A program made the translations under genes and the position numbers. From contig CM114271.1 of assembly GCA_050084515.1 (NCBI GenBank), forward strand, positions 26,288,001-26,352,000: a stretch of 64,000 nt of DNA. The letters run 5' to 3'. The notes under the pieces are model-generated. The model did not search any database. It saw only the letters and a program-made list of their open reading frames with translations, and had not been told where the DNA came from. The DNA is from Blasia pusilla (taxonomy: Eukaryota). Shown here in pieces: positions 6,231 to 55,204 of this stretch (its first letter is position 1; each line of letters starts with the position of its first letter).

Positions 6231-6519
6231 CCTTCTCTATTAGGAGCGTCAGAACTATGATAAGGGTTGCTCTTTTCTTAATTAGGAGATAAAATATAAT
6301 ATTGTGAAAAAGGATAAGATAATTCTTTCAGCATAATGTGTACGCCCATCGTGCTGATCTTGAGGTGCCAATGTGTGCGTACCATGTTGATTATAACATC
6401 TTTTCTCTTACAAGGAGAAACACATAATTGCAACACAAATCTTACATGTCTCATTGACGTATAAGTGTTGTTGGAATTACCCCATGGGCTTACAAGTATC
6501 ATATTCACGAGAAAGACCC

Positions 6520-7010
6520 TGTCACGATTGTTATGATAGATCGGTGAGATCTAGCAGAGCGTCTGCACGAGTTGTGGATGATAGGCCTAGGAGGTCAAGG
6601 ATGACTTGTTGAGGCCCCGAGAAACCTGACAGAGTAGGTTTCCCCTTCGTTTCGGCTCATTTGCAGCCATATAGATAAACTTACTATTTCGGGTAAGTTT
6701 CCATATTTGGGAAAGTTGACTTTCCACTTTGGGAAGTGGCCCTTGACCCGCTACAGTAGGTCAAGATCCAAGGAGGTGACCTGCAAACATACGCTACCGT
6801 TGAGAGGGCTTGGGAGAGGGAAGGGGGTATACCTCATTCTCTTTTTGTTAAACCTCTTGGCATAAGGGAGCGGAGCTATGGTCCCTTGCTTTGTGAGTGT
6901 AACCCAAGTCTCTCATTAGGAGAGTGGGTTTGGTTTGACATGAGAGAGAGAGTGCACACCTTTGAGAGCTATGGTGTGAGATGGTGTAGAGAGACATTGG
7001 ATCTTACTTT
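6520..7010 (+). repeat. Terminal repeat A1 of copy 1 (~490 bp)
   Basis: Direct repeat of 16111-16624; homology stops after ggatcttacttt. Contains a TATA-like motif (catatagataaac) and short hairpins. Confidence 0.92.
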
Positions 7011-8552
7011 ACAAAGAGAGAATGAGAGAGTGAGAGAGCTTCATGGGGGAGCTTGCAAGTCACTCGCTGTTTTTTCAGGTTGGGGACTGCGTTCCCCCCT
7101 CAGAGGCTCATGGGAGTGCTCACCGGAGCAAGGGCAACTTTGATTGTTCTTTGCATTTGCCGATTTTCATGTGGAAGAGGGGCGCGCGGAAGTGCTGCCC
7201 AATTTCTGATAGGGATTGATTATGGGGGCGGGTTACCCCATGCCGGTGCTCTTGGGAGCACCATGTAGCTTGGTGATTTGTATTTTTATAGGTTTTATAT
7301 TTTTTTTGGGAGAAATCAATGCGGAAGCGCTGCCAAATTTTGTGTAGGAGAAAGAGACATTGGGCTTTACAACAGTCCGTGTCAATTTTTACTGGAATGT
7401 TCAATTTAAAATATTTTTTAACTTTGTCGTAAGTTATGAACGTTGTGCAATAAACAAGGAGCAATTTGGAGTTGCGAGCAAAAAGTGATGGTCAATCTTG
7501 CAAAATTGCCATTGTTATGCGTTTTTTAGGGTTAAGTTGTTCAAACCCTAAACTAGCCGCCATGCCGCCGGCGGTCGTCGCCATCATAGTCAACGCCAAC
7601 GGTCCACCCTTGATGGTCAACCGTCACCATCAATGTTCAACCATCAACGTCAATGGTCCACCGTCCGTTGTTCATCCTTTGGTTGCCATTGCCGCCGTTA
7701 CGGAGTGGAGGGCGTTTACACGACGTTCGTTGATTCTCTAACTTGCGTCGCCACCATATACTTTATTTTGGCCACCACCCTCATCAACCTGTGGTGGCAG
7801 ATGACCTCTGGTTATGGTGTTTCAGTTATGATTTCATGCTGCTATGTTGTGATTGGTAGCCACTCGACGACGATTGAGTGTCGTGTTGTGACGCCCGTAG
7901 CCGCAACGCTTCGCCAATTGCCGTGTTGTGCCGCTCGTGGCTGCACCGCACCATCTTGATCAAAGAGCACACCATCATTGCGGATCTGAGTGTGGGTTAA
8001 TTGTTGATTGAGGAGGGTATGCCGCCGAGTGCCGCATCCCACCATCGAGGGCCGTGCCGTTCGTAGTCGTTCCGTGTCGTCTGCAACGCCGCACCGTTCC
8101 GTTGGAACCGCACTATTTATCGAGGAGTTTTGAGCAGCGTCAATACGGGAGGAGTTGTCTCCATGGCCGAGTTGGGGTCGAGGTTTTTTGTTGTTGAGGA
8201 GGGACATCGACATGTGTTCAGGTTACCCATTCTGGTCCTTTACCATGCACGTGTGAGGGATTTTGGGATTTGGGTAGTTTATTTGGGGATATTGGGTGTG
8301 TGGATGGTGAGAGCATCATTAATTTATGTGGTTTAGGGGACATAGACCTATGTGGGATTTATGGAGTTGAGGGTATGTTGTCGATGAGATGATAGCCTTG
8401 TCGATTTGTCGGACACGCCACTTGTTGCCGCACGTTACACATCTCGGGGAGGGAGAGTGTAGATGGAGTGCCGCATGTTTGGGATGACTGATTGATGGAT
8501 TACTCACGAGGCGAGAGGGGCACAAGGGTCATCACGGCGTCCATTCGAGACT

Positions 8553-10033
8553 TTGAGAGGCGAGGTGCTGAACCTCGAGAGTAGCTCTAGAGATTTTACG
8601 CGGATTGGCGCGAGGTTCCGAGGGTCTCCACGTGAGGGACCACCTCAACCCCCTTATGTGTCATCATCACATGAGGGGGAGGATATAGAGGATTTTGTGA
8701 GCACACTGCCACATATTGCGAGTGCCACATATTGGGCGTACGAGATGGAAGACCGGGGTAGAGGACCGCGTAGGTTTTCAAGTGCAATAAGTACGATTGA
8801 GTTACACGATTTCATACCAGAGTTTAGGAGTTGGTGTGACTCCCAACGGGCCAAGAACTCTAGAGAGTTCAACCCATTTACAACATGGAACGGTATGTTC
8901 CACCATTTAGAGGGGGCACCCATGGACGATTACCATGAGTTCTCTCAGAGATATGCACGTGAGATCGAGGCGTGGAGGCTCTACTATGACCCACATTGTG
9001 TGTCATGGACGGAGCCATTCCCAGATGAGGAGGAGGAGTCAAGAGAGGCTACTTCCTCTTCCACAAGTGAGGTTTTAGGAGGGGTCACTCGCACGGGAGC
9101 AGTTGAACCGTGTCGTCGGGTTCGTCCTAGGTTCAACCATGTGGTTGATTTCTTTGGTGAGTTGAGGGCGAGCTACCAGGGGGTACGAACAGAGAATTTG
9201 CAGAGCATCCATGACTTCCAGAGGCTCCTGGCCGAGAGTTTGCGTGAGGCTTACACTTTCTAGCGCCGATTGATCAACGTCACTCAAGGTATGCAGAGGC
9301 TCGGGCTATCCAATCATGATACGCGATGTTGGACCGGACCCTGCGGACACGAGTGCGGGAGGGGGTGCTTCTTATGAACACCTCCCCTATGTTGAGAGAT
9401 GTTCTTAGGATCGCCGAGAACATTGAGCGCAACATGGCGGAGGAGAGCATAACCACCATGGGTTCTGGGCAAGAGAACTCGCGATTGATTGCACCACTTG
9501 TGCAGCAACGTCGAGTCCGAGATAGGCCGACTGTGGCACCACGAGCTAAGGGAGGATACCCGGAGGCCGTGCCATAGAGACCAGCGCCTTCATATGCGGC
9601 TTAGCAGCAGCCACCTACTATCACTTGTTGGTCATGTGGTGGAGCCATCATCAACACGATTGCACTCGTTAGGGTTATGGACGTGTGCCTCAACATGGAG
9701 GAGGAGATGGTGCTGCACCCGGAGGTTATCAGTGTGACTATTGTCAGAGGTATGGTCATACACATGCCAGGTGTTTCTGTTTACATCCTGAGTTACGTCC
9801 GGACCGAGGGCCAGAGACAGCACCAAAGCAAGTAGCCGGTCCGGGTGGGCCTTAAGATCGTGCACCAAGTGGTGTCGTTGGGGGACAAGGAGCTGGAGTT
9901 TCCCGACACGGTGGTGGAGCTACCCGTGGAGGAGGTAGAGTCCTACCACCTAGACGCGTCGAGGGAGATGCAAAACATGATGCTAGGATGGCTACTCAGA
10001 TACATTAGCTACAGGAGCAGATTGGCACTATAA
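8553..10033 (+). pseudogene. Gag region of copy 1 (capsid-like segment plus two zinc knuckles)
   Basis: ORFs 8553-9263 and 9326-9577 (SIHDFQR..ESLREAYT). CCHC knuckle GYQCDYCQRYGHTHARC at ~9722-9772. A second, upstream knuckle reads WACGGAYHKRNC in copy 2. Confidence 0.8.
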
Positions 10034-10619
10034 CATTGCGATTACCCGATGCCAGATCCGTGGCATCGACATCATATGGAGCAGCCAAAGATATGGAGGA
10101 TCCTGGTTGGATGTGCGGGGTTGCTTAGATGGAGGCAGCCGTAGTTGTGACGCGTGGAGCAGCCACAGAGTTGGATCCACAGTAAGGGAAAGCCAGGAAA
10201 CACACTAGGTTTCCTCAGTCTTTCACGTTGTCAGAGGCGATGAGAACCCCATCGATGGGTCCTGATCAGAGTTCCTGGAGTGTTGGTGATGTTGTTGGTG
10301 TGCAGGCACAAAGGGCGATGGGAGAAGCGAGTGCAACGACTCCTATTGTTGATGCTCAGGAGGGGCATGTGTCAAGCACATTGTTGGGGGCGGCCACCAT
10401 TGTGTACCGCTGTCCTTTATTTTCTGCTTCCGATGTTATGACGTTGGGGGGTAAGCCCGCCAAGGCTTATCGGCTGGCCACTACGCTATATGAGCATAGA
10501 GTTGGATTTCCTGCATAACGTTCAGAGGTGATTGCAGAGGAGGTGATGGACCTGCCCTTGGAGCGGATGCTTGGGCTGTCCACGTGCGATTCATGGTAGA
10601 TTGCAGTTGCTAGGATGGG

Positions 10620-11100
10620 GAGATGCCCGCTAGACCCGCAATAGAGCATGCCATGGCTTCCCCTGGTGTTGTGTTGTTGGATAACAAAGAAGAGGTCTTC
10701 CTATTGGTGAGTCTCGGAGGTAGAGCTTTTAGGCCGCAGCGCGTCTTGTTGGATTCAGGAGCGCAATCCTTGATGTTGGGGAAAGCGTCATTCAGAGGAT
10801 TGGGCTTGACAAGAGCCGATGTGGAGCGTTGTCCATTCCGGATACACACACCCTTGGGTTGAGCGAGTACCACATAGTATATCACCCGATGGGAGGTTGT
10901 GGTGAGGATTTTCTCGGGACATCCTACAGATGAGTCCGTGGTGCGAGCCAAGGCGATAGTGACTGATGTAGAGTCCTAGGACATCTTGGTTGGTGGAGTA
11001 GTGTTATACCTGATGGGGTTTTCCTTGGATTACTGGGAGGAGTCAGCGTCCTTCAAACCAAGATGGCAGTGAGGTGATGGGCGCCTTAGCTGATTACCTG
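10620..11100 (+). pseudogene. Retroviral-type aspartic protease of copy 1
   Basis: RVLLDSGAQSLMLG with DSG at 10752-10760; downstream DILVG flap-like motif at ~10980. Confidence 0.85.
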
Positions 11101-11459
11101 TTCGATTCACAAGTGCAGTGATCAAGCGACGGCCAGTAGAGGTTGCAACCTTAGCACCATTAAGCACTGCCATCACTTGGCCTAGTGAGGACATGTCCAT
11201 GCAGAGGATACGCCCGTTCTTGACATTTCTATGGAGAGGAGTGTTATGATAGTTGCATCATTCCGTGGAGAAGAGATGCCATTGTGAGGCTCGATCTGAG
11301 AAGCTTCGACGATTGGCAGAGGAGCACCTGCAGACCATATGGAGCGAGGCATTTGCACCATAGCATGATAGGTCTAAGAAACCCGAGGTAGTTGGGAGTG
11401 CTACAATGATACCCTTGGATACCACACCTATTGTGTGGTGTATATCGAAGAAGGGTGTT

Positions 11460-12400
11460 CGAGTGTTAGATCTCTTTGGAGGGAATAGCACCGGGTTAGC
11501 TGTTGTTTTGTAGACAAGAGTGCGAGTGCAGGAGTACGTGTATGTGGAGAGTGATGATGTTGTGAGGCGCGTCTCAATACAACATGTGGCACAATTACGC
11601 CTACGTTTTCTTGACTTATTGTTTGTGTCTGCGGTGTTGGGATACAAGAGTTCCCTACCAAAGGATATTTCGTTGGTAGGGGCGTAGGACTTAGAGCAGG
11701 TAGGGACCATTGATTTGGTCATTTTCGGTTGGCCATGTGAGGGCCAATTGAGTGTTGGACAAGGCAGCGGGTTGGTTGACACTCAGTCCAGGTTGTTTTG
11801 GGAGATGTCGAAAGATTTTACGGTAGTTGCAGGAGCACATGTCTCGTTCTCCAGCCTACATTATGGAGAATGTGCCGATCTTAGGAGACTCGAGGTCACG
11901 CATGGTGACGAGTGCTCATCTAGTGCGTGCCTAAATTGGCCGTGCAGTGTTCTTGGATGCAACGAGTGTAGATTCTAGAGCCCATCGCCCGTGTCTATGG
12001 TGGACCAACTTGGTGCCCCATGCGCTGTTACGAAGGGCGTATGCGAGAGTGGAGCGCCCCTCCCATTTGTTAATGGATTCCATTCTGAATCCAGGTCGTC
12101 GATCACAGGTAGTGAGGCACGATGATCGACCAATGTTGACTGTGGTTAACAGGGTAGGTAGGCGGGGCAGCCTTGCCCACGTTTGTGAGTTTTCCCGCTT
12201 CCTATACATACAAGGAGGTCGGTCTTGGCTTGGTTTGGGATGACCAGGTTCAACGGTTGATGGACCCCAATGCCAACAAGAGAGAGCGAGCGATGGGATT
12301 TCCCACAAGAGTGACAGCAGTACCTTCAGTGTCAAAGGCATCATGACGCCATGTCTTGGGTCATGCGATGGACCTGAACTGTTTGACATGGATCCTTAGC
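11460..12400 (+). pseudogene. DNMT3-like C5 cytosine DNA methyltransferase domain inside the retrotransposon polyprotein (copy 1)
   Basis: Motifs in canonical order: I RVLDLFGGNSTGL (11460); II YVYVESD; III PKDIS; IV GTIDLVIFGWPCEG (PC at 11733-11738); V SRLFWE; VI YIMENVP (ENV 11866-11874); VIII DATSVDSRAHRPCLWWTNL; IX RERAMGFP; X RHVLGHAMD. Contains stops and a frameshift. Confidence 0.93.
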
Positions 12401-12839
12401 TGTTGAGCAACGCCGTATGAGATCACGACAGATCACAATGGTTGCGTTAGTGAGCCCCATGCCTACCGAGACGGTGGAGGCAGTGGCTGGGGGCGAGACT
12501 CGAGGAGACCTACACACCAGGGGAGATTGGGAGAGACACCCTTGGACTTCTTGGGATGTTTTCCAGGTACGCCAGAAGTTGATAGCCACATCATCGAGCG
12601 TGGTTCAGGGCACTGCATGTGAAGGAGATCAGAGTTTGCAATTGGTTGTAGGAGAGTGGCCAGGTGTTGTTGTTCGAGACGGGGTTGCACCATAGCAACC
12701 ACCGATACACTACGGTGGACAGTCCTATCGTAGTCATCATGAAGACTTGGGAGCCAGATATGGTCCCTAAGTTAACAGGAGGAGAGCGGCGCTGAATACA
12801 TCAATTCCTCTTAATTTATAGGAGTTGCTTTGCGCTTAG

Positions 12840-14140
12840 CATGGAGGATCTGGGAACGTTGAAGGGATCGGGGATCCGCATTGAGTTGTGGAGTGATACG
12901 CCGATCTTTCTGACGACCCTACTTATATAGTGATATGGAGAGGGCTCTGATTCAGAGTAGGAGCCAAGACTTGGTCGGAGCTAAACTAGTGGAGATGTCG
13001 CATGGGGAGTATGCATCTGCCACTGTCATGCCCGCCAATAAGGATGTGCATGGCAACAGGACGGATAGGCGGATGTGTGGGGGTTACTGACCTATCAATT
13101 GGCAGACGAAGTCCAATAGGTATGCCATGCCCACCCTTGAGGAGATCTTTGATGCAATTGGTCATGCAAAGGTCTTCAGTTCATTGGATTTGCGAGTCGG
13201 ATACCATCAGCTGCCTATTAGATTGGAGGACAGGCATAAGTGGACATTTTGGGGCATCGATCCTCACGGGAAGGATTGTTTGTATGAATGGTGGTTCTTA
13301 CCCTTTGGGTTAAAGAACGCCCTGGCTGAGCTTCAGAGGGTCATGGATAGGATCTTGGCTGGTCTGGATTTTCCTAGGTATGATATTGATGACATTGTAG
13401 CCTTTAGCGCCACGGTTGAGGAGCATGAGCGACATCTAGAGGAGGTGTTTCGATGATTGCAATTACAAGGCAAGTGCAAGTTCTTCTACGACCAGATTGA
13501 GTATTTGGATCATACGATATACCCAAGGAGGCCTTGGTATCTCACACACTCCACGCCCTACAGATATGAGCCATGTTCGCGCATTCATGGGATTGGCGAA
13601 CTTCTATCTGCGGTACGTCAAGGGATTCAATTCGATTGCGCAGCCGCTAACCTTGCTGACGAAGGTGGATCACGAGTGGCACTAGGGGGATGAGCAAGAG
13701 TGAGCATTTCAATTGCTAAAGGAGAGGTTGACGTCCGCGCCCATCTTGAGGAGACCGATCAGGGGGCGTCCTTTTCAGTTGCACACAGATTGGAGCATGT
13801 TGGGGCTTGGAGCGGTGCTCGCCTAGCATGATGATGAGGGTAGAGAGTTCATGGTGGCTTACGCTAGCCGCTCGAACAATGTTGCAGAGGCAAAGTACAA
13901 CTCGTATGAGGGTGAGTGCTTGGCTACAGTGTGGGGTGTCGCGCATTTCAGGTGTTACTTATTCCACAACCCCTTTACCATCATCATTGATCATCAACTA
14001 CATAAGTGGTTGATGGAGTCCGAAAAATTTATAGGGAAGCTTGCGAGATGGGCTCTGTTGTTGTAGGAGTATGATTTTTAGGTGGTACATAGACTTAGGA
14101 CGCTCAACCAAGATGCAAATGGGTAGAGTCGTAATTCATG
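12840..14140 (+). pseudogene. Gypsy reverse transcriptase and RNase H of copy 1
   Basis: AKVFSSLDLRVGYHQ, LPFGLKNA, YDIDDIVAF (~13380); VRAFMGLANFY; RNase H FQLHTDWSMLGLGAVL, VAYASRS, YEGECLA, KLARWALLL. Confidence 0.95.
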
Positions 14141-14329
14141 CCCAAGTCAACGAGATGCAACTGGATTTTAATGGCATGGAGAGAATGATGAGGAGTCAGT
14201 GCCAGGATGGCATGCATCAACCTATTTAGGCATGTTGGCTATGGAGAGCCAGAGTGTGGAGACTTCGATGGCGAGGTCTTGCGGAGAGTCCTTGGATCCC
14301 GAGGCCAGTGAGGAGACGACAAGTGGCCG

Positions 14330-15600
14330 AGATATTCATGATGATGGAGAAGTGTTGGAGTACCTTCGTACTAGCAGCGTTGCGAGCACCGTGGATGCTA
14401 GAGAGCAGGATTGGATCCTACAGCGGGCCTTACGGTTCTGTTGGGAGGGGACACATGTTTTGAGGGTTTGGGAGGATGGTAGAGTATATGTAGTGCCACA
14501 TCCTTTGCATAGAGTACGACTTTTGCAGCATGCCTACGAGGAGTTGGGTCACTTTGGAATGAAGCGGACGTACAGCTTCCTCCAGATTCAGTATTGGTGG
14601 CGAGGCATGCATACTGACGTTCAGTAGTTTGTTGTTAGGTGCATGGTGTGTTATCGGGTCCGAGCATCATTCAATGCTCTGACTCCACAATTGAATCCAT
14701 TCCCAATGATGGGCTTAGGGTATAGACAAAGTTTGGATTTTGCATAACCTTTGCCTTTGACGGAGCGTCACAGTAGTTATGTGTTGGTGATGGTCAAGCA
14801 CTTCTCGAAGTGGATCAAGTTGGTTACATTGCTTGACAAAGCGAGTGAGGGAGTAGCTTATGCCTTCCTTGATAGAGTGAAGAGTCATTATGGTGCACCG
14901 TTTGAGCTGTTGACAGACCATGGTACCGAGTTTCGCGGTGAGTTCCAAGCCTTGTGTCATCAGGCGTTGATCGACCACCGCACGACTTTGGGAGATCATC
15001 CTGAGGCGGATGGATTAGCGGAGAGAGTTGTGCAGAAGATGAAGAGGGGTTTACGTAAGTATGGCTTGCAAAGAGGTTACCTAGGAGATTGGGACCTCTA
15101 GTTGCCGTGGTTGGCGATGGGATACAAATTCAGCAGGCAGGCATCCTTAGCATCTTTTTCACCGTACTTGCTACTTTATGGCCGAGAGACAGATTTACCT
15201 TCAGCCATTCGTCGAGATGCTGGTGAGGTGCTGGACCTTGATGACCCCGATGTATGGATGCGAGCATGTTCTCAGAGGGTTGAGTTATTTCGGAGAGAGA
15301 TGCCCATGGCGTTTGAGAACTTGGAAATTACGCAACATCGAGATATGTTGAGGTATGCCACTATTTGGGATGGTGGTTATTGACCAACTATCTGGAGGTT
15401 TCATCAGGGAGATTATGTCTACTTGTAGCAAACGGCAGTGATGATGTTGGATGTGACTGCATGGCGCACTATCTTGAGAGTGTGTGACGTTTTGCCATCC
15501 GATGTTCTCTTGTCGCAGGGACGTGATGGTATAGTATGGAAGGACCATGTGCGTAATTGTGCGCCATGTCATTTTCCTAACATTGATGGTATAGTAGATC
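14330..15600 (+). pseudogene. DDE integrase of copy 1
   Basis: HAYEELGHFG...YWWRGM (Zn-binding region), HFSKWI, LTDHGTEF, HPEADGLAERVVQ, SPYLLLYGR. Confidence 0.93.
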
Positions 15601-15624
15601 CGAGCTAAATACTAGTTTCTGCAG

Positions 15625-15790
15625 GCTTGCGTTATATGTTGTGTGGTTCTGCTCGTGGTGCCATCCCAAATAGTGGCTGACCTCCCACCACGATGCTAGT
15701 CTGTGATGGATGTTCGAGAGGCTGGCATATGGCATGTCTGACGCCACCACTCACTAGGGTTCCCCGGGGACGATGGATGTGTCCTTGATG
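15625..15790 (+). pseudogene. C-terminal PHD finger fused to the integrase (copy 1)
   Basis: YMLCGS...[32 protein letters not shown] matches the C4HC3 pattern; the first Cys is not intact in any copy and this copy has a short insertion. Confidence 0.88.
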
Positions 15791-15985
15791 TATATAGAGG
15801 AGATACTAGGTAGGTTTTGATTCGATATTTTTATGTGACACGGATGACAGGAATGCGACTAACGATGGGGCCACATGAGCACCACGTCTTTCTGCTCTTT
15901 GCGTCCTAGAGATGTATGTCGTGGTAGGTAGGGATAGATGGCTATTTGGAGTTAGAGGGACCTAACCACTAGCCAAGGGGGATTG

Positions 15986-16108
15986 GAGATATTTTGGTAC
16001 TTCTCGCCTCTATGTATGGAGGCCATGAGTTAGCATGGAATCGTGTGTGTTTGTGTGTGTGTTCGATTAGACGATGTATGTTGTGTAGCGATGTGTATGC
16101 GTACGACA
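15986..16108 (+). repeat. Repeat B1 of copy 1 (~120 bp)
   Basis: gagatattttggtacttctcgcctc...gcgtacgaca; direct repeat of 16630-16747. Confidence 0.92.
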
Positions 16109-16110
16109 TG

Positions 16111-16624
16111 TGTCACAACTATTAGGATAAATCGGTCGGATCTAGCAGAGTGTCTGCATGAGTAGTGGAGGACAGGCCCAAGAGGTCGAGGATGACTTGT
16201 TGATGCCTCGGGAAACCTGAGAGAGCATGTTTCCCCTTTGTTTCGGCTCATTTGGAGCCATATATATAAACTTACTATTTCGGGTAAGTTCCCATGTTTG
16301 AGATAGTTGACTTTACAATTTGGGAAGTGGCCCTTGACCCACTATAGTAGGTCAAGAGCCAAGGAGGTGACCTATGAACATAGGTTACCGTTGAGAGGTC
16401 TTGGGAGAGGGAAGGGGATATACCTCTAAGAGAGATAAAGCTTGAGAGCTCATTCTCTTTTTGTTGAACCTCTTGGCATAAGGAGGCGGAGTTATGGTCC
16501 CTTGCCTTGTGAGTGTAACCCAAGCCTCTCATTAGGAGAGTAGGTTTGGTTTGACATGAGAGAGAGTGCACACCTTTGAGAGCTATGGTGTGAGATGGTG
16601 TAGAGAGAGATTGGATCTTACTTT
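16111..16624 (+). repeat. Repeat A2 of copy 1
   Basis: Starts TGTCAC; colinear with 6520-7010 and carries an extra ~24 bp that A1 lacks. Confidence 0.92.
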
Positions 16625-16629
16625 AATTC

Positions 16630-16747
16630 GAGATATTTTGGTACTTCTCGCCTCTCTGTATGGATGCCATGAGTTAACATGGAATCGTGTGTGTTTGTGT
16701 TCGATGACAACGATGTATGTTGTGTAGCGATGTGTATGTGCACGATA
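16630..16747 (+). repeat. Repeat B2 of copy 1 (right terminus)
   Basis: Second copy of B, followed directly by the TSD ACCC. Confidence 0.9.
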
Positions 16748-18982
16748 ACCCATCTCTTATATGTAACTAGATAAGTCAAGTTGCTATTTAAGGGGATCAA
16801 TGCTATATCATTATATTGTACGTGTTTAAATCTACGATATGTATTCATGATATTTCAAACATGTTGGAGAGTTGAAGGCACTCTTCACGAGGATGGGTAA
16901 GGATTGAGAGTTGTACATACTAAGAAAATATCACAAGTAGCTTGAATACTATTCATTGATGCTAACCTTGAACATCAAAATAAGAAGTTGAATTCCAACA
17001 TGCAAGGATGGATGTTGAAGTAACTTTGTTAATGGTATGTTTATCAAACATGTGTGCAAGTACTCTATGTATTATTTTCAACATTCCTTATTATGAAAGG
17101 ATGTTTTAAAATGCATTACAGTCATTCATAATCAAAACGAATATATGAAAATATATTTCTCTATTGATAGTTTTTATGGCTTGCAATGCTTATATCTACC
17201 TTGGAATACATGGTACTACATATCTCTATGCATCCATGTTTGGATAACCCACACAAAAGGATTTTTGCACTTGAGATAGGAATGCAAACATCTCATCTCC
17301 ATTGTGGTCATGTTTAAAAGAAATTGGTGTCAACTCATGTAATGCATCACTTGTCACATGGAGTCAACAAAAATAAGCGTTTGAGTAGAACATGATATGA
17401 CCCATATTGCAAAATGGTGCACCAAAAGGAAAACAAATCAAGCTCCATGGGGGAATTTTACAATGTTTGTGTGACCCTCGTAACTAAACACACACCAACG
17501 TGGAACACGAAAACTCTATTGGACTCACAGTGAGATCGAAACATATCAAAGTCGTACGGGGAAGACATGAGTCTAACTCAAAGGAGGTTGCATCCTAGTT
17601 GGGAATCTGCCTGTCGTTCGAGGTGCTTTCCACATTGAAGTCATATGACCTCTACATAATTAAGACGTAGTTGAGATGAAGAAAGTTGGGTTTGAAATTT
17701 TGCAAAAGTCAGTGCTCCTATAACAAAGTTCCAAAGTATCAAACAAAAATAAGTCAAAGTAAGGGATCACAATTACATGAATTATAGTTTGGATTGGGGA
17801 CCAAGGATAGGAGGGGAAGATCTGAGAGGGAGTTTGGAGCAAGCATGAATCACATCTAAATTGGAAACATTGCGAGTTGATATATTTTTTCCTCACATAA
17901 GACCACATGATCCACAACTTTTAACAATTAATGTCCGTAGAGCACAATATATTCACATTTCATATTTGCATAAAGGTTTTGGTTGGAGAGCTACTATTAT
18001 AAAATTTTCTATCTTCAATAGGGAGCCCTCCTGCTTGAGGTGTATTTATATTTTACTTAAACTTATCTCTATTATAATAAGATTCCACATTGTATTTTTC
18101 GTATTTGTGCTTGCTCAAACAATAAAATCCGTTCCACTGCATTGTCTCCTCATTGGGATATCTATCCTTGTTCACTAATTCCTTATATATCTAGTTGCTC
18201 TATCTCACAGTTCTACTCATACTCCTAGTTGCTAAGACAATACTCCCTTTAAAGCATGATATTCCTTGTTTCCAACATGTTAACACCTAGTTTGCTATTG
18301 GATCAAGTTTGTGAGTTGGACCTTATATCTATTAAAGTAGTTTTTTATGAGATAAAATTTATAAGAATGTATCATCTCACTACTATTCCTTTGTTGAATC
18401 TAATCATGCGTGAGACATCCCAACTCAATAGATCAAGATATGCTTACTTCCTTTGGTTTATCGGCATCCGACGTTACTCACATCTTTGTAGATCTAGTGT
18501 TACTTACGAGCCCCGCCTATCAAAAACCACTTTAGATGCCTCTAAGCACGGTATCACTTTTGACACTTTTGTATCAAGTATCTCAGAAAATTTATAGTCC
18601 CTCTCTCTCGATCCATGGATTTTTTCTATTTTATAAATCATGTTTAATATGGTTCAATGTATCAAGAGTCAAGTTTTTTTATTAGTTTCAAAGTGGTAGC
18701 TTTTCTCAATCTTATGCATGCATTCTAATTGGTGCTTAGCCCCAACTTATGTCATGGATTCCAAAGCTCATAAAACTTACACAAGGAAAAATAGAAGATG
18801 TTATATCAATATGTTTATAATGCTTGATTTTATCTCATGTCCCTTGCCTACCGACATGTCCTTTCTACTTTATGTTTCTTGACTTATTCTTCTTGTATAC
18901 GATATCCAAGCCTTTGTTTCTTTTAATTACAAAAAGGTATAGTCTCTTTTCAAAGATTGGAAAATACAAGGAATAGCCCATC

Positions 18983-20216
18983 TGTAACATTATAATTATC
19001 TCTTTGTATTGTACTTATCTTATATAGATATGATTCTTCTTTACATTTAGAATTAGTATCAAATAAACATCGACGGATCTTGACAAATAAGCATCGACAA
19101 ATCTTGAAAGATGGTAGTATTGAGGCGATAACTTATTTATAACATCGAACACATAAATTCATAATTATAAAGTCCTTGTAAACTATTTTTCGCTTGTGGA
19201 GAAGAAAACTAACAGAACTAGTGTTAAACCCTTCCCGAACAGGCCTATTAACATCCATGGATCACTATATAAGAACTTCAATGGACAATCCCATGTCCTC
19301 CCATACGTGAAAATAGGAAAAATCACAAGAGTTGGAGATTGCATGACCTAGTTTATGAATTCCTCCCCAAAGTGGTAAACTAGATAGCGACTAAATGAGT
19401 GCTTATCTACAAAGAGAATGGTCACGTGGTATGCGTTAAGGAAAGGAAAATTATGTACAATTTGTGCTCCATCCCTTCCCTACTTGACGGGCATCCTCTA
19501 CTCTCTTCAATAATGGGTTGTGGCGAGTTGCTCTTGCAAGAGGGGTAATCCACTCTCATTGGGAAACTAACAAGCCTAAAACCCATCCATTATCTATAGT
19601 ATGACTAAACTTCCCTAAGATGACAAATCTCTCATCTTCACACTTACCATACTCTATAAATCTCTAGAAGAATAGACCATAATCAAATTACTCTCCAAAG
19701 AGGGGTAATACACTCTCATTGAAAGAGCAAGCAGACCCAATACCATCCACGCAATAGTGATACAATAACTCAAGAAATGAAGTAGAAGGTGATGAACCCT
19801 TGAAGGTCTTTCCTCTTTGTATACTCATAAGAGATCCACAACAGTACAAAATAAGGCTAATGTTATCTTGTGCCATATGGCTTCCTCCCAAAGCTTAGTC
19901 AATCACATTTTGACACAAGTAGATAACCTCTTATCTCTTCCAAAATCTCCTCTTTTACTCACTTCATATATTTCAAAGTATCCCAACTACCCTAGCCACT
20001 AACCAACACTACTTTTTATTTTCTTTCATTAATGCACTAATCCCACTACTTTACTTTTATAGTCTCATGTTTAATTTATTATCTGTTTTCCTAAAGTTGG
20101 ACGTGCATAAAAGAAGCACCATAAAGAGCTTTAAACATGGAAATTTCTTTTTCCTAAGCTTATTTACTTAATATTAATAAAGCTCTCTCTAACACTTAAT
20201 GAGATAAGAGTTAACA
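18983..20216 (-). mobile_element. 3' LTR of a second Gypsy family
   Basis: On the minus strand it starts TGTTAAC and ends GTTACA, just downstream of an integrase relic. Core ~19110-20000 is homologous in inverted orientation to ~41520-42400. Confidence 0.65.
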
Positions 20217-23900: not shown

Positions 23901-24100
23901 TGTTACGTATATTAGGATAGATAGACGAGACCTAGTATGGCACCTTTGAGGATAGTGGAGGATAGTCTCAATAGGTCAAGGATGACCTCCTAAGATGTCT
24001 CGATATTTGGATGCTATGAGTTATCATGGGATCTTGTGTGTTTGTGTGTGTATTCGATGACAACGAGGTATTTTGTATAGCAATGTATATGCGTATGATG
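23901..24100 (+). mobile_element. Internally deleted solo A+B unit of the DNMT-Gypsy family with a 4-bp TSD
   Basis: First ~88 bp match the A start (tgttacgtatattaggatagat...ggtcaaggatgac); the rest matches B (...gcgtatgatg). TGAT flanks both sides (23897-23900, 24101-24104). Confidence 0.85.
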
Positions 24101-26935: not shown

Positions 26936-27763
26936 CGTAACGTCAAGTGTCAAGAGTTAACAAGAATGAGAGAAAATAGATCGATGGTTACGTAAGTATC
27001 GCTTGTAGCAGGGAAAATTAAGGGATTATGACATATGTATAGTTGTTATAGTTAGTTCTGGAATAAGATTTTAGTTAAGAGGCATCATTGGCATTATTTC
27101 CATCATAATATTTGCTCTATGGGAGACAGCCGGACTTAATTACAACGATAATATGTGATCTAACAAAGGTGTTCGACATTGAATACTTGAATGTATGGGT
27201 GTGAGCATGTTAGCAGAGGGCATTTTTTAATATATTTATTCCCATGGATTGAAGAACTTATCTACTGCTTAGCAGAAGGATAGATTGAGAGATTGAGGTA
27301 TGCAACTATTTGTGGAGAAGGTTATCATGGAGGGATCAAGAGTTTCCAACATGGGAATTTGTCTAGTTACAATAGTAGGCACTCGTGACAATAGATCTTA
27401 CCGTAGGACACATAATTTTGCATTTGTACAAGGTGTTAGAAATCCGAGTCCTTCTGCTGGAGGGATGGGATGGTATGCTTGCATCATCTTTACAATTATG
27501 CATAATGCCATCTTTTGAACGTGGGTGAGAGAGTTTATCCAAGTTGGCAGTGGTGTCTTGGGGATTAAGGTGCATGTAAGGTGGATTACAAGCGGTGTAT
27601 CCACCGTGTTGGTAAGTGATATCTTCTTCTAAATATCTTATAGTAGATAGCCCTATGCCTTATACGGAATCTTCTTAAAGAACTTATCTGTCCATCCTCC
27701 ATAGTTTTGAATAATGCTTAAATAACGCATAATTTCTCTTAACTTGACCTCGGGGATGTCACA
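26936..27763. mobile_element. Possible solo LTR
   Basis: cgtaacg start (TG decayed to CG) and cggggatgtcaca end are LTR-like; no TSD and no second copy in the window. Confidence 0.3.
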
Positions 27764-30099: not shown

Positions 30100-30720
30100 C
30101 ATATGCTTCATCTACAACTATCTTTGTTGCGTCCATATTTTTTTATTTAGTTGATGAGATATTTTCCCCAACTATGAGCTTGAATCGTGGATTTTAAGGA
30201 CATGATATAGGCTATCCAACACGACATGCCTATCTACACAGTTGTGTTTACAATTTGCAATTACACAAAGCAGAGGAAAAAAGTCAACCTCGAGCCAAAT
30301 ATGGGCACTCACAAAATATTCATTCTCTAATTTCATTACAGACACAACTCCTCAAAGCTCCCTCTTTAGCTGAGGGTAACTCCTTTGTCATTTTGTTAGT
30401 GTGCAAGATCCAAACCTTGTTGAAAACCTTATATTTTTTGCTTCATCTTGCACAAGTGCCTCTCCGAAAGCAATAGGACTAGTATCCACTATGATTATAA
30501 CCCACGGTGACTTCAAGGCCTTCTCTAACAGCATCACCGCTATCCTTCGCTCCTTCTCCTAAGTGACTTTTTTTTCTCAACCACTCATATAAAGGATCAA
30601 ATTTATGGCTCCTAAAGACCTGCTCACGTCAACGACTTTCTCACACTCTCATATCTTAGAGATGTAATCAAACTTTTTTGGGATTCAATTATTAACCAAA
30701 CTCTCCCCAAAGATCATCCA
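30100..30720 (-). pseudogene. Gypsy RT-end/RNase H relic
   Basis: Minus strand IIVDTSPIAFGEALVQD...RFGSCTLTK*QRSYPQLKR. Confidence 0.7.
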
Positions 30721-31859
30721 CTACCACAATCTAAGGAACCTAAAACTACACTTTTCTCGAAAAAGAGTAAGATGTATTTTTTTTAGTCTGGTTAGAATCA
30801 TATCCAAATCACATATATGATTAGATATAAAATTTAGAAACTTGTCATTTATAATCCTTTCATTTATATCTTTTATTGCACATCCTTTTATAGGAATATA
30901 ATCTACAAAATAAATAGTCTTCTCCAGAATGAGCTCTCATAGGATCTCATTCATTGCATTTTGCATCCGAGTAACAAATATTTTACTTAAGAGAATGTGC
31001 ACATTCTTTCAAGCCCAAATGGAGTGTGCGCAGTGGTTATGTCTATACTTTACATAGCCAATTAGAATCCATCACATCTTAAGAGTGAATCTCCTATAAA
31101 AAAGATGACATGGGTTGCAAAAAGCTTTGACAAGTTCAAATAGCCTACGTTCCCATATTTTTAATGGTTAATTACCTCATTGTGTTTAGACAAAAAATCC
31201 TACCTTTGTGGTCTTATAAAAGATCCAATCAAGATGATGGTCTGTAAGTTATGTACGATCTTTGTGATTTTCGGTGTGAAGGTTTATGATGCGTCACTAT
31301 ATATCTTCTTGAAATGTATTTTTCCCCTAGATTTATTTGATGTTATTACACAGCTTTGGTCCCATATTTTTCAATAAATATAAATGTTTGGGCCAATAGC
31401 TTGTCGATGGATATATCTGACGCAACAATGTATTTATTGGGTACATGAATAAGTGTAAGATCTACATCTCATCATAAGGTTTATATGGACAAAGGTAACA
31501 TCAAGGATTATGGACCAGGTTTTGTGATAGATTAGATGAGGCGGTTTGAGGATATTAGGACCCTTGCATGGCGTGATGGAGTTAGTGGTGAAGAGCCCAA
31601 GGAAGCCTAATTGATTATCGCGAAAGATGTTAAACTTAGGATTTGACCACGTCTTACATAATACCTAGGCCATGGTCAAATGGATCAAATCAATTACCAA
31701 TGCTTTCTCTACAGAGTTAATCTAAGATCTTTTGTTATAGCAAAGAAGTGTGATTCAAGGGTGCTCTCCGTAGGAAAGTCACCAAAAGTGAGTGACTTAC
31801 AATGCACATTATTGTACCTACTTGGACAGGAAATATTAATCATCCTCTATTAATGTAAC

Positions 31860-34029: not shown

Positions 34030-37000
34030 TCGGATATACCAGAGTTGAGGATGGTTTTTCGATGAGACGATAGATAAGTTGATTTGCCGCACCACGCGGC
34101 TTGTTGTTGCACAACACACGTCTTAGTGAGAGAGTGTAGATTGAGTGACGCCTGTTCAGTTTGAGTGATTGAGTGATTACTTGCGAGGTTGAGAGTGATT
34201 GTGTGAGAGGGGCATGAAGGTCATCACGGTATCCTTTCAGGACTTTGAGAGGCGAGGTTGTGGACCTAAGAGTAGCTCTAGAGGATTTACCCGGAGTGGT
34301 GCGAGGTTTTGAGAGTCTCCACATGAGAGACCACCTCGATCTCTGTATGTGTCATCTTCAGACGACGGGGAGAGTGTAGAGGAGTGCGTTTGTGATTTGC
34401 AACACATATTGAGTGGTCCTACCAGTTGGGCGTATGAAAAAGACGACCGCGTAGGTTTTCAGGTGTTATAGGCACTCTTGAGTAACACGACTTCATTGCA
34501 GCGTTTAGGAGTTGGTGTGACTCACAACGAGTTTGGACCTATAGAGAGTTCAACCCGTTTAGAGCATGTTCTTGCATTTGGAGGGGGCGCCCATGGATGA
34601 TTACCATGAGTTCTCTCACATATATGCCCAGGAGATCGAGGCATGACGACTCTAATATGAACCATACTATCTGTCATGGACAAAGCCATTCCTAGATGAG
34701 GATAAGTCAGGAGAGGCTACTTCCTCTTTCATCCATGACGTTTTATGAGGGATAACTTGCACTGGAGCAGTTGCACTGTCCAATCAAGTTTTTCCAAGGT
34801 TCAACCCTGTGGTTGAGTTATTTGGTGAGAACTTGCGGAGCATCCACGACTTCTAAAGGTGTCCGGAAGAAAGTTAGCTTGAGGCCTACACTCGCTTACA
34901 CCGGTTAATTAACATCACTCAGGTAGTGACAGAGTCCTAGACTATCCATAAATGGTACGTGATCCTGGACCGGACTCTACGAAGACCTCTCCGAGAGGGG
35001 ATGCTTCTTATGAATACCTCCCCTATGTTGAGAGATTTGTTTAGGACCGTTGACAACATTGAGCACAATATGGTAGAGGAGAGTGTAGCCACCATGAGTT
35101 ATGGGTGAGAGCAGCCATGAGTATCTGCACCACAAATGCAACAACGTGAATTCCAAGATAGGTCCGTGGATATTGGGCGGCCCTGCCATAGAGCTCAAGG
35201 AGGATACAGGGAGGCTGTGCCACAGAGACCTTCGCCCTCATATGCGGCTAAGTTTTTGCTGCCTACGATTATTTTTTGGGCATGTGGTGGAGCCTATCAC
35301 AAGCGTAATTGCACTCGTCAGGGTGATGGACGCGTGCCTCAACCTGGAGGAGGAGATGGTGCTACACTAGGAGATTATCAGTATGACTATTGTCAGAGGT
35401 ACTGTCACACATGCGCCAGGTGTTTCAACTTACACCCTGAGTTACGTCGAGACCGATGGCCAGAGAGGATACCAGAGCGAGTTGCCATCGAGATGGGCCT
35501 AGAGGTCGTGCACCATGTGGTCCCGTTGGGGGACAAGGAGGTGGAGTTGTCCGAGGGGGTGGTGTAATTGCCCATGGAGGAGGTAGAGTTAAACCGCTAA
35601 GACGCAACGAGGGGGACATCAGGCGTGAGGAAAGGATGGCTGCTCATATACAACAGCTAAAGTAGCAGATTACTGCTCTAGTATTGAGGTTACTAGGTGC
35701 CGAATCCGTGGCATCGACGTCTTATGGAGCAGCCGGAGATATGGAGGATCTTGGCAAGATGTGTGGGGTTGCCAAGATGGAGGCTTCCGCAGTTCTTACA
35801 TGTGGAGCAGCCGTAGAGTTTGGTCCACAGTGAGGGAAAGCCTGGAAAAAGACTTGGCTTCCTGAGTCCTTCACGTTGTTTGATGAGATGAGGACTCCAT
35901 CGATGGGTCCTGATCAAAGATCTCGCAGAGTTGGTGATGTTGTTGGTATGCATGTAGGGAGGGCAATAGGAGAAGGAGGTGCAACGACTCCTATTCCTGA
36001 TGCTCAAGAGGAGCATGTGTCGAACACGTTGATGGGGGTCGCCACGATGGTGTACTGTGCTCCTTTATTTTCTTCTTCCGATGTTATGACATTGGAAGGT
36101 ACGCCCACCAAACTTTTCCGGTTGGCCGCTATGCTATGTGAGCGTGGTGTTGGTATTCTTACGTCCCTCTCAAGGATGATTGGAAAGGAGGTGATGGACC
36201 TGCCCTTGGAGCGTATGCTCAGGTTGTTCGCGTCAAATTCATGGTGGGTTGCGTTTGCTAGGATGGCGGAGATGCCCGCTAGACCCACAATAGAGCATGC
36301 TATGGATTCTTCTTGTGTTGTATGGCTGGATAACCAGGGAGAGGTCTTCATGTTGGTGAGTCCAAGAGGTAGAGTTTTTAGACCGTAGGACGTCTTGTTG
36401 GATTTTCTTTTTAGAGCGCAACCCCTGATGTTGGGGAAAGCGACATTAAGAGGATTGGGCTTGTCGAGAGCTGATGTCGAGCGTTGTCCTTTCCTCATAC
36501 AGACATCCTTGGGTGGAGTGACTACCACATACTATATCACCCGACATGAGGTCGTGGTGAGGATTATCTCGAGACGTCCTACAAATGAGTCTATGGTGCA
36601 AGCCAAGGCGATAGTGACCGATGCCGAGTCCTTTGACGTCTTGGTTGATGAAGTAGTATTATACCGGATGGGGTTTTATGTGGATTATTGGGACGAGTCA
36701 ACATCCTACAGACAAGTATGGCAGTCAGGTGATGGGCGCCTTAGCCTATTGCCCCTTTCATTCATCCGTTGAGTGATCAAGCAATGGCCAGGAGAGATGG
36801 CGACCTTAGGAGCATTTAGCAGCGCAATCACTTGGCCTAGTGATTTGATTGAGGGATATGCCCTTATAGAGTACACTCATGTTCGTGACATTTCTATGGA
36901 GAGGAGTGTCATCGTAGCCGCATCATTCCACGGAGGAAAGGTGTTGCTTTGGGGCTCAACTGCACGAGCTTCGACGCTTAGCCGTTGAGCATGTCCAGAC

Positions 37001-37728
37001 CGCGTGGAGTGGGATGCTTGCACCAAAGCGGGACGGTTAGAGGAACCTGAGGTAGCTAGGAGTGCTACTATGACTCCTTTGGACACCACCCCGATTGTGT
37101 GGTGCATCCCACAGGAGAGTCTTTGCGTGCTAGATCTCTTTGGAGGGATTAACATTGGTTTAGCTGATGTTTTGCAAGCAGGAGTGCGCGTGCAAGAGTA
37201 CCTATACATGGAGATTGATGATATTGCAAGGCACACTTCACTTCACCATGTGGCTAAGTTATGGCTGTGATTTCCTTCCTTGTTGTTTGCGTCCGCCGTC
37301 TAGGGATACCAAAGTTCCCTACCGAGGGATATTTCCTTGTTGGGGGTGCTCGACTTGGAGTGGTTGGATAGGGACCATAGATTTGGTCATTGCAGGTAGG
37401 CTGTCTCAGGGCAAATTGAGTGTTGGATGAGGTAGCAGGTTAGCTAACACTCTATTTAGGTTGTTTCGGGAGAAGATCCAGATTTTGCGACGCTCGTAGG
37501 AGCACCAATCACGTTGATTAGGAGTGGCACTATGGGGGATAAGCATGAGAGAGCATTTTAGCTGCTCAAGGACCGATTGACATCCGCCCCCATAATGAGG
37601 AGACCAATCACGGGGTGTCCTTTCTAGTTGCATAGTGATTGGAGCATGTTGGGGCTTCGAGCCGTACTCACCCAACATGACGATGATGGTTGAGAGTTTG
37701 TGGTGGCTTGAGCTAATCTTTCAAACAA
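34030..37728 (+). mobile_element. DNMT-Gypsy copy 2, 5' part (UTR, gag, protease, N-half of DNMT, deletion, start of RNase H)
   Basis: Colinear with copies 1 and 3. DNMT LCVLDLFGGINIGL...YMEIDD...IDLVIAGRLSQG at ~37120-37505, then a jump at ~37515 to the RT end and RNase H. A1 is missing. Confidence 0.9.
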
Positions 37729-37849
37729 AATTTTCGTATAGTAAAATCATCCAGTGTGTAAACTCCTGTCTCTTTCAATATTAGATAGATTTTTATTAGT
37801 ATCAAGTAAAATAGCTCAAAAAAAAGGAAATTCCCATGTTTAAACCTCT

Positions 37850-38260
37850 TTATGGGTCCAGAAAGGAGTTAATAATTTTTGGGCATTTGCTTACAAGTCC
37901 ATTTTGCATGAAACTTTACTAGAGTTTAACATGCACCTTGGAGAACACGTGGCATAAATTCCAATTCAAAATGTGAAAGTTGGACAAGATGAAAAATAAA
38001 AAAAACCCAAACCATTTTGGTCTCATCGTTCGGGTCCAAAATGGACTTGCCACTTTTTGAGCTTGTGGTCCCAACTCCATTTTGCTTTAAACTTGCCAAG
38101 AGTGTTAGATGCACCTTGGAAACCATGTGGGCTAAATTTTAGCTCAAGATGGAAACGTTGGACAAGATGTCCGGTTAAAGACCATTTTTTTTCATTCAAG
38201 GTTATGTCCTTCGGGTCCAAAAGGTCATTTTAAACTTAATTTGGGATGAGACTTTGCCAA
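37850..38260. repeat. Diverged ~180-bp tandem repeat, ~2.2 copies
   Basis: gggtcca anchor at ~37854, ~38032, ~38213; atgcaccttgga and gttggacaagatg are repeated. Confidence 0.75.
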
Positions 38261-39106
38261 ACTGAAAGATTTTATTGGGGGACCATCTGCACTATTCTAT
38301 AGAATGCTAGAAGAGTTATTACATTACACTCTTGTAAGTAATTACACTCTCGCAATTAAATGTAAATGATATCCTACTCCCTAGAGTAAATTCATCCTTC
38401 CATAAAATTTAAACCAAATCTATTCATTCTCCATTAAAATTCAATTTCCCTTTCCATTACATATGAATCAACGCACCTCTGAATTTCTTTATCTATCATT
38501 TTCAAATTTATAGAGATTTAGTAAGATTTATATTCACCTATTGTAGTATTAAATAAAAATGAAATAACAAGTAATTTTGGTTTTCTATTCCATCCAAGTC
38601 TCTTTCAAATTCTACCCCATGCAATATTTATCAGAGGGATAAAATTCATACATCATTTATCTTTACAATTAAATTCAAACATATATTTTCCTTCATTAGT
38701 TTTGGGAAAAAAAATTCATCCCTTTTCCAATCTCCATCTTTCAATAAATAAAAGAAACTCGCTTAATTTTATAAGTTAGTAATTTTTTAGGAATCAGTAA
38801 TATAAAAAATAAATTTATATCAAACAAATCATTAAATTATGGTATCTTCCATCCTATCCAAGGATTTATAACCTAAGAGAAAAATTTAATCCATTTCATG
38901 AACTCACTTCATGGACAACATTGTTGATCGTCTCACATTCACAAGTTTCCTTAGTTGTATATTTTGAATTTTTTTATAAATGTCTTACAACAAATGAGGA
39001 GTAGCCCACAAAACATTGGGATTGAGAGGAATCTAATACTTGTGTACATAACAAAGATATAAATATCAATTCATTCTCTCTTATCTGATTCATCATCCGA
39101 TATATG

Positions 39107-40985: not shown

Positions 40986-41383
40986 CCCCCCTTGCGGGCC
41001 CGCTCTACATCCTGCGCGGGGGCTTTATGGCCTACATACGCGTCCACGATGCCCACCCCCTGGGTCTGTGAGCCCTCCCTCGTCCATATGTGGGCCTGCA
41101 AGGCCCCGCCCCTACACCCGCATATGAGCCCATGAGCCCGCATGCAGGCCTGTCGTAGGCCGCGTGCGGCCCGTGAGCCTGAGTGCCCCCGCCTCCCCCC
41201 CCATGGGCCCGCCGTTCCGGTGAACCCCGCGGGGATACGTGGCGGCCTCGGAGTGGCTGGGCCAAGTTCAAATTGGCCCCAACTTCCTCCCCTTCCCCCT
41301 TTTTTCCCTTTGGAGTAGAATCCATAAGGGAAGGGGCCCATAAGAGGCCCCAAATATTTACATATGGGGGGAGTTAAAGAGTA

Positions 41384-55100: not shown

Positions 55101-55204
55101 ATCACTCAAACTAAACATGTGGCACTCAATCTACACTCTCTCATTGAGACGTGTGTTGTGCGGCAACAAGCAGCCAGGTGCGGAAAATCATTGATCTATC
55201 GTCT

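Follow-up and report, generated by a model that had tools for sequence, protein, structure and literature searches.

The window, by which we mean the whole 64,000-nucleotide stretch of the Blasia pusilla genome analysed here, contains three decayed copies of a retroelement of ~10.2 kb that encodes, in this order, Gag, a protease, a C5 methylase, a reverse transcriptase (RT), RNase H, an integrase and a PHD finger. With its protease-RT-RNase H-integrase order and a DDE integrase, the triad being the commonest reading in 40 copies, it is a Ty3/Gypsy element, dead but very abundant in the genome. Copy 1 (6520-16747, forward strand) displays repeats, domains and a target site duplication. Copy 2 (approximately 34030-44850, forward strand) is partial, both the methylase-RT junction and RT being absent, and is split by an insertion. 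Copy 3 (47104-57099, reverse strand) retains every domain, all of them broken, and has its 3' end cut by another element.

On the forward strand of copy 1, a broken gag-like region (8760-10494; tblastn of the N-terminal part of the relative P0199, E 7e-78) is followed by a broken aspartic protease (10716-11048; tblastn of the protease of the intact relative L100, E 4e-18, which itself matches Pfam Asp_protease_2 below the cut-off) and a frameshifted DNMT3-like C5 cytosine methyltransferase (11454-12394; tblastn E 1e-58). Behind the latter lies an in-frame TAG followed by CAACCA (12693-12701, the TAG at 12693-12695), a family-wide feature that recurs in copy 3 on the reverse strand at 50933-50925 (TAG 50933-50931). 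The second part comprises a broken RT (13016-13525; tblastn E 2e-78), RNase H (13725-14123; tblastn E 3e-65), the integrase zinc finger and DDE core (14493-15032; PF17921 E 7e-14 and PF00665 E 4e-8, over the cut-off) and an integrase C-terminal domain (15303-15605; 72% identity to P0161), from which a short linker leads to the PHD finger, the frame between these last two domains being unbroken across copies.

The window also holds other repetitive DNA. The element that cuts the 3' end of copy 3 is a different LTR element (45118-47080) with a protease at 45118-45474 and a weak RT at 46587-47042, and its repeat matches 30671-31170 in reverse. The insertion of ~4.8 kb in copy 2 (37730-42545) sits inside RNase H, and one stretch of it (41507-42399) aligns in reverse with 19111-20015 at 78%. 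Same-family relics, consisting of an integrase C-terminal domain piece and a sequence like the terminal repeat B described below, occur at 27337-27544 and 23999-24099, and a Helitron helicase-like fragment (PF14214, E 1e-9, over the cut-off) lies at 63731-63979.

In the genome that carries the window (G000; 390 Mb, 26 contigs), a first look returned 4,218 candidates for the PHD region and 9,866 for the methylase. None of the 150 methylase candidates scored from these 9,866 was intact, the longest open frame around the methylase among them having 762 aa, and younger, divergent subfamilies may have been missed. The organisation of an undamaged element can be seen in L100, in which 1,369 aa of Gag, protease and methylase are followed by TAG CAG TTA and then by 1,047 aa of RT, RNase H, integrase and PHD. 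One anchor interval (in 7 of 12 copies) hinted at a -1 shift of frame from gag to protease, but this was rejected, as 38 copies show shared stops only in the other two frames. A single frame change was seen in the first frame of the relative L102 (2477-2609) and none in that of L100, which could be a mutation or an assembly error.

The ends of the element are not paired LTRs; they are split repeats in the arrangement A-coding-B-A-B, with B-A-B present in 23 of 40 copies, and the element starts with TGTCAC and ends with CGACA. On the forward strand of copy 1, A1 (6520-7011, starting TGTCAC) is 85.5% identical to A2 (16111-16625), B1 (15982-16108, ending CGACA) is 88% identical to 16626-16745 and is separated by 2 nt from A2, and B2 (16626-16747) forms the right end. 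Across 19 copies, the median identity between A1 and A2 amounts to 94.4% (range 68.2-98.4, with a nested repeat involved in the lowest value). A polypurine-tract-like run lies just 5' of B1 (15975-15981), where other copies have a G run. A1 is directly followed by neither B nor a TGG primer-binding site, and a purine-rich run follows it in all 29 listed copies, so that the two full direct LTRs and the primer-binding site of a Ty3/Gypsy element are missing. No mirror layout (A-B-A at the 5' end) was found in 30 5' ends, and the complete split layout is also present in the metagenome relatives L063, L067, L107, L131 and L132.

The TG...CA ends and the target duplications, on the other hand, are those of Ty3/Gypsy. 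Copy 1 is flanked by ACCC at 6516-6519 and 16748-16751, an exact 4-bp duplication occurs in 12 of the 18 copies with both ends, against 2 of 306 mismatched control pairs (15 of 18 copies if one mismatch is allowed), and a 5-bp duplication in none of the 18. From these ends and duplications it follows that a DDE integrase made the insertions. Membership of the Phygy clade of REXdb, for which an NCGN target preference is described (PMC6317226), was considered by target motif and rejected on this basis, none of the 12 exact duplications showing NCGN. The spacer of 2 nt between B1 and A2 is present in 27 of 40 copies (GC 8, AC 8, GT 8, AT 3). An internal CA-NN-TG junction is thereby kept at this place in the window (16104-16116) and in 27 fetched copies. 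Transposases of the IS3 and IS30 families work from a circle-junction-type substrate, and by analogy the internal junction suggests a circle-junction template which, if true, would explain how DIRS-like ends can occur together with integrase-type target duplications; the lack of a mirror layout in the 30 5' ends speaks against it, however. The joint between A2 and B2 shifts by one base among copies (11 versus 7) and resembles an end-joined circle junction.

In a Pfam scan with stops read as X, the PHD family PF00628 was recognised over its cut-off of 24 bits in copy 1 (15633-15791, forward strand; 41.5 bits, E 1.4e-10), copy 2 (43849 to ~43971, forward strand; 27.9 bits, E 2.3e-6) and copy 3 (48006-47872, reverse strand; 34.9 bits, E 1.6e-8). 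This bears out the preliminary description of the locus, which had read a C4HC3-pattern finger in all three copies and had named PF00628 as the family to look for; re-reading likewise confirmed its observation that the first ligand is Tyr, Gly and Gly in copies 1, 2 and 3. All three fingers are broken and none has a complete ligand set. Copy 1 shows, in addition to the Tyr, in-frame stops at 15606, 15678 and 15786, of which the second lies within a 24-nt insertion missing from 9 of 9 other copies and the last precedes the final Cys; copy 2 is without ligands 1, 2, 7 and 8, and copy 3 without ligands 1 and 3. As had also been stated, the finger closes the reading frame, with a TAG at 15795, a few codons past the last Cys of copy 1, and a stop at the same place in 5 of 9 other copies. 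A chromodomain behind it had been reported missing, and indeed the three frames of 15790-16110 in copy 1 yielded no Pfam family and hence no chromodomain, and Pfam showed no chromodomain after the PHD of L100 either.

For the family as a whole, we tallied the ligands in 48 copies, i.e. the 40 best non-window methylase matches of the 150 scored plus nine PHD matches, one being a duplicate. The PHD region is present in 41 of them; ligand 1 is Cys without exception in these, and 23 retain the full set of eight ligands. The family finger has the C4HC3 ligands together with a Trp two residues ahead of Cys7 and belongs to PF00628. From the RT start to the PHD, all 40 intervals between adjacent anchors keep the frame in most copies, and stops at any one position are shared by at most 8 of 32 copies, the junction TAG aside. 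Since the ligands are kept and the frame from RT to PHD is without a shared stop, neither of the two observations that would have spoken against the finger according to the preliminary description, a loss of the zinc ligands or a stop before the PHD, was made across the family copies. Moreover, when L100 is compared with L102, dN/dS is lowest in the integrase core (0.02), reaches 0.04 in RT and ~0.05 in the PHD, and is 0.13 in the methylase; this one pair of intact relatives, in which dS is near saturation, shows a PHD that appears to be under purifying selection. We can conclude that the PHD finger of the element is genuine and that the odd first ligand of the window copies is decay. The data further support the view that the finger is the regular C-terminus of the family's integrase, in the slot where chromoviruses put a chromodomain.

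The question arises what a PHD finger and a methylase do in one and the same element. From our point of view, the PHD could be an integration-targeting module and the methylase a separate module that acts on the element's own DNA, a reading that is based on sequence and that we hold to have roughly an even chance of being right. The main alternative is that of a coupled reader and writer, in which the PHD would recruit or activate the methylase on chosen chromatin, be it within a readthrough product that stays uncleaved or within the pre-integration complex. The ADD domain does this for the methylase in animal DNMT3; it consists of a GATA-like finger and an all-Cys PHD-like finger, immediately N-terminal to the catalytic domain. 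The intact L100 methylase does have its best PDB matches in DNMT3A/B/C (E 1e-7), the PC and ENV motifs prevail among 40 copies (in which motifs I, IV, VI, VIII, IX and X were tallied), and the methylase region contains no ADD or PWWP of its own by Pfam, which speaks for coupling. Yet the finger is a single one, its ligand 5 is His in 37 of 41 copies, the best PDB matches listed for it include no ADD, and it is located ~1,000 residues downstream of the methylase, beyond the conserved stop and with protease sites presumed in between. As read from its ligands, it is a His-containing C4HC3 PHD and not an ADD domain, and the earlier suggestion of a DNMT3-ADD-like reader that guides the writer is hence not supported.

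The relatives provide arguments in both directions. PF00628 is found in 85 of 101 integrase relatives, a proportion biased by the PHD included in the query. A profile derived from ten natural methylase domains detects a methylase sharing the open frame in 46 of these 85. It immediately precedes the integrase in 40 (for 20 of which a position between RNase H and integrase can be proven) and lies ahead of RT in 6. Another 18 of the 85 carry RNase H, integrase and PHD but no methylase, as expected with an upstream stop, and the remaining 21 are fragments. In the metagenome set, a methylase lies upstream in 34 of the 38 loci with enough DNA, and the pairing reaches as far as Tetrabaena and Pleodorina. 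According to these counts the association is old and wide, and the 46 shared frames, in particular the 40 with the methylase next to the integrase, fit some coupling and count against a view entirely free of it. However, the methylase occupies two places in the polyprotein whereas the PHD is always behind the integrase, and the full-length relatives P0216, P0219 and P0220 have a methylase and no PHD. As such, of the proposed pair of reader and writer the reader part is supported, in so far as the finger resembles readers of unmodified H3 (see below), and the coupling is the less likely part. Because of the conserved, leaky-looking stop between them, methylase and finger are probably separate and not one reader-writer unit, and we consider coupling unlikely.

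Among named proteins, the closest ones belong to Calypogeia, Sphagnum, Marchantia and Coleochaete, and no named Klebsormidium protein was among the relatives retrieved. In a quick integrase tree (103 of 105 rows, two being too short; SH-aLRT without bootstrap; 11 distant matches as outgroup), the window copy groups with P0161, P0001 and P0082 (SH-aLRT 97), and this group falls inside a 29-row group of the methylase-before-RT type (SH-aLRT 86). Given the weak support of the tree, we make no claim on the order in which the methylase moved. Many algal-type relatives (P0052, P0056, P0018, P0023, P0026, P0030) carry 320-430 residues past the PHD with a stretch that looks Tudor-like by eye. In P0052 and P0056 this part contains DPFAGSG and SPPF motifs and is adenine-methylase-like (PF02086, E 0.0035, below the cut-off); if true, these two would unite in a single frame a DNMT, a PHD and an additional methylase. 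P0132, a member of the plant-type cluster, is labelled uncultured cyanobacterium and is probably mis-binned host DNA.

The stop between methylase and RT is a feature of the family and not of single copies. Out of 43 sequences, two were without the region and one was mis-mapped; the remaining 40 copies comprise 37 with TAG, one with TAA and two with a sense codon, which amounts to a stop in 38 of 40, and 33 of the 40 have exactly TAG-CAACCA. Throughout the genome, a 20-base junction pattern was found 1,269 times with TAG versus 18 times with A, C or G as the first base (6 of them CAG). On contig C1, the first 100 exact junction matches spread over 25 Mb at ~4 per Mb with no obvious cluster, which, if anything, speaks against targeted insertion. 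Among 80 metagenome loci, 46 include the place where the RT frame begins and 44 show a stop upstream of it, at the matching place in 39 of these 44 and elsewhere in 5. Likewise, 23 of 63 database proteins scanned stop 82-176 residues past the methylase, Marchantia models included. The Marchantia polymorpha models P0199, P0200, P0204, P0211 and P0214, annotated as hypothetical or as methyltransferase, have 1,159-1,278 aa and stop 82-86 residues past the methylase, and by their sequence they look like the Gag-protease-methylase first frame. The idea that PHD and methyltransferase share one polyprotein thus stands as far as the same frame is concerned and fails as far as one open frame is concerned, since an in-frame TAG intervenes family-wide.

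UAG followed by CARYYA is the readthrough signal of tobacco mosaic virus (TMV), with ~10% readthrough in vivo (PMC2754532), and such a signal is present at the junction of the window family and of L100 (CAGTTA), L102 (CAATCA) and L106 (CAACCA). In the latter three, the junction stop is the sole TAG with CARYYA among 101, 75 and 63 TAGs of the strand, respectively, and the junction frame and CARYYA are kept although the flanking codons diverge. We only infer low-level readthrough of the junction TAG, because three observations speak against it: the largest metagenome group, with 31 of the 44 stop-bearing loci, has TAG or TAA followed by CAACCC, which differs from CARYYA by one base; an in-frame ATG follows the stop after ~2-3 codons in this group and after 15 codons in the window family; and in Tca2 the gag-pol stop need not be read through via local signals (PMC2194720).

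The same ATGs and the Tca2 precedent are what one would expect if the PHD steers integration and the downstream frame is made by re-initiation, from an internal promoter or by splicing, so that methylase and PHD would never be part of one chain. A complete RT-to-PHD frame of 1,083 aa in a Coleochaete transcriptome (P0003) points the same way. The position of the ATG is not conserved, however, and L100 contains no Met within the first ~115 residues past the stop; in addition, a second frame with its own start leaves unexplained why frame and CARYYA persist amid diverging codons. RT and integrase normally need a fusion to Gag for packaging, which also argues against separate translation. We regard this alternative as rather improbable, a little more so than coupling.

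As to what the finger binds, its best PDB matches are CHD4, PHD1 of KDM5A/B, PHF12, BHC80, ATXR5, DPF/KAT6, BAZ2A/B and UHRF1, and neither search lists an ING, BPTF, TAF3, DNMT3 ADD or ATRX entry in its top 60 PDB matches. PHD fingers of the ING/BPTF type, which read H3K4me3, have an aromatic cage with a Trp two residues before the His ligand. At this position, 39 of 41 copies and 74 of 80 relatives have Gly, and a Trp never occurs, so that the finger is, by its residues, without the cage Trp and not of the H3K4me3-reader type. In ATXR5 and BAZ2A/B, K4 is read unmodified and without an aromatic cage (PMC5499861, PMC4291147), and a P-x-G-x-W loop and the Asp after Cys3 bind H3A1 and H3R2 in ATXR5 and BAZ2A (PMC5499861, PMC4291147). 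Both of these features of unmodified-H3 readers are found here, the correspondence to the ATXR5 numbering being inferred: the Asp behind Cys3 is kept by 36 of 41 copies and, among the relatives, by 77 of 80, and in 23 aligned proteins the P and W of the loop are invariant and G and D are present in at least 90%. ATXR5, BAZ2A/B, KDM5 PHD1 and BHC80 share with the finger the ligand spacing, the LxPP...PxGxW loop, the Asp after Cys3 and the lack of the cage Trp (PMC5499861, PMC4291147). The second Asp, which binds H3R2 in ATXR5, is by contrast mostly absent. At this position after Cys4 (ATXR5 Asp44), the window family has Ser, as does BHC80 in the alignment, and only 5 of 80 relatives have Asp. 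The window family also has no acidic residue immediately before Cys1. As both the second Asp and the N-terminal acidic residue are missing, H3 binding could be weak or different. Overall, the finger resembles the PHD readers of unmodified H3.

A predicted complex of the P0161 finger with the H3 tail of the genome under study lends weak support to this. It scored 0.38 versus 0.02 for the best control, with runs agreeing in at least 91% of contacts and a partner pLDDT of at least 54, and methyl states are indistinguishable by this method. Whereas 51 of 78 solved pairs pass the mark applied, 2 of 108 mismatched ones do so; at scores of 0.60 or less, though, the passes include only 5 of the 78 solved pairs, as opposed to all 4 of the passing mismatches. 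Since PHD and H3 are a textbook pair, the pass may also reflect memory.

The missing acidic residues would further agree with a finger that is not a histone reader at all: its partner would be a host protein, nucleic acid of the element itself or another integrase subunit, or it would stabilise the integrase C-terminus. The PHD of ATXR5, too, has functions beyond nucleosome binding (PMC5499861). The P-x-G-x-W loop and the Asp after Cys3 are, however, kept across the relatives, and the nearest structures are those of H3-tail readers, which makes such a role improbable, in our estimate somewhat more so than separate translation of the second frame. Finally, an origin of the TAG by damage to a single master copy spread in trans, the working element having one open frame, might be suspected from the heavy C-to-T decay of the copies, in which CAG to TAG is a common change, and from the relatives P0158 and P0212 with the same domain order in a single open frame, but it is largely refuted and very improbable in view of the 6 CAG against 1,269 TAG, the matching stops in 39 of 44 metagenome loci and in the intact L100 and L102, and the 23 of 63 database proteins that end soon after the methylase.

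Coming back to the PHD as targeting module and the methylase as separate module, the following course of events can be imagined. The element has one frame, in which Gag, protease and the DNMT3-like domain are followed by the in-frame TAG-CAACCA and then by RT, RNase H, integrase and PHD. Most ribosomes would end at the TAG and a minority would continue, as in TMV, so that the methylase would be made and packaged at a Gag-like level and the integrase-PHD at perhaps one tenth of it. The protease probably releases the domains. The PHD would remain on the integrase and bind the H3 N-terminus when K4 is not trimethylated, thereby tethering insertion away from active promoters, a job done in chromoviruses by the chromodomain. 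The methylase, in turn, would most likely act on new cDNA or on a fresh insertion without the PHD; self-methylation was proposed for such enzymes by de Mendoza et al. (PMC5890265). One could further speculate on the whole of it, namely that in an old green-lineage clade abundant in bryophytes a TMV-type leaky stop brings many copies of a DNMT3-like enzyme into the particle, where it pre-methylates the cDNA, that a scarce integrase-PHD reads unmethylated H3K4, and that a circle-junction-type substrate may explain the ends. In this full form the proposal is tentative and, taken together, doubtful.

Among known systems, KnitGypsy-Dnmt3 of Klebsormidium nitens (PMC5890265) is similar in that a DNMT3-related domain is part of the Gypsy coding region in a green-lineage host and, to judge by the published description, in its DIRS-like split terminal repeats. 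Its DNMT is stated to share an open frame with RT and RNase H, whereas an in-frame stop lies between them in the window element. The text and three supplement files of that report contain no mention of a PHD or of target sites, although its Fig. 4c may draw a PHD. Gypsy-7a_cRei of Chlamydomonas reinhardtii likewise has a Gypsy polyprotein with a PHD finger, with intergenic insertion at 2.6 times above chance and a proposal of targeting; REM1 of the same alga is cited alongside it as a PHD-type Gypsy (10.1101/2022.06.16.496473). In contrast to the split ends and the methylase found here, Gypsy-7a_cRei has 15.4 kb and paired LTRs, and no methylase is mentioned for it (10.1101/2022.06.16.496473). 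With the chromoviruses, the element shares the slot at the integrase C-terminus for a chromatin reader that is proposed or shown to direct insertion; it differs from them in having a PHD and no chromodomain, a predicted mark of unmodified H3K4 as opposed to H3K9me, and split termini (PMC6317226, PMC6673714), and is hence no chromovirus. The EpiLTRs of Cymbomonas and Euglena also unite a reader and a DNA methylase in one LTR element, but use a chromodomain, DAM and a DNMT4-related enzyme where the window element has a PHD and a DNMT3-like enzyme (10.64898/2026.05.21.726589).

The junction has its counterparts, too. Besides the amber codon with CARYYA of TMV (PMC2754532), stop-separated frames with the upstream product in excess are described for MuLV, SIRE1, Tca2 and rice gypsy candidates; in those the stop comes after gag alone, in the window element after protease and methylase (PMC2754532, PMC2194720). 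PHD fingers are called widespread in retrotransposons (PMC6673714), are among the commonest reader-transposon fusions (10.1101/2021.11.30.470311) and occur in Ginger1 integrase-like transposases (PMC2836005). In a literature search that left subscription papers, Repbase and figures outside its scope, we found no paper naming PHD and DNMT3 in one Gypsy element, nor a readthrough stop therein; a fern genome paper treats host CMT genes only. The PHD alone is a known accessory domain, and what is added here is the conserved stop and the detail of the split termini.

Overall, the at least 1,269 junction places of ~10 kb each would correspond to up to ~3% of the Blasia genome, and some host gene models named hypothetical or methyltransferase are probably first frames of such elements. 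Transposon methylases have been described as absent from 'land plants, such as tracheophytes' (PMC6338049), and the relatives in Marchantia, Sphagnum and Calypogeia put such methylase elements in land plants. Chromatin maps exist for Marchantia and make PHD-directed insertion examinable. From our point of view, most of the interest lies in the recoding signal and the termini and less in the finger. As the stop would set the methylase at Gag stoichiometry, it points to self-methylation of the cDNA and not to a reader-guided methylation of host chromatin, and it thereby bears on the purpose that the methylases of retrotransposons may have.
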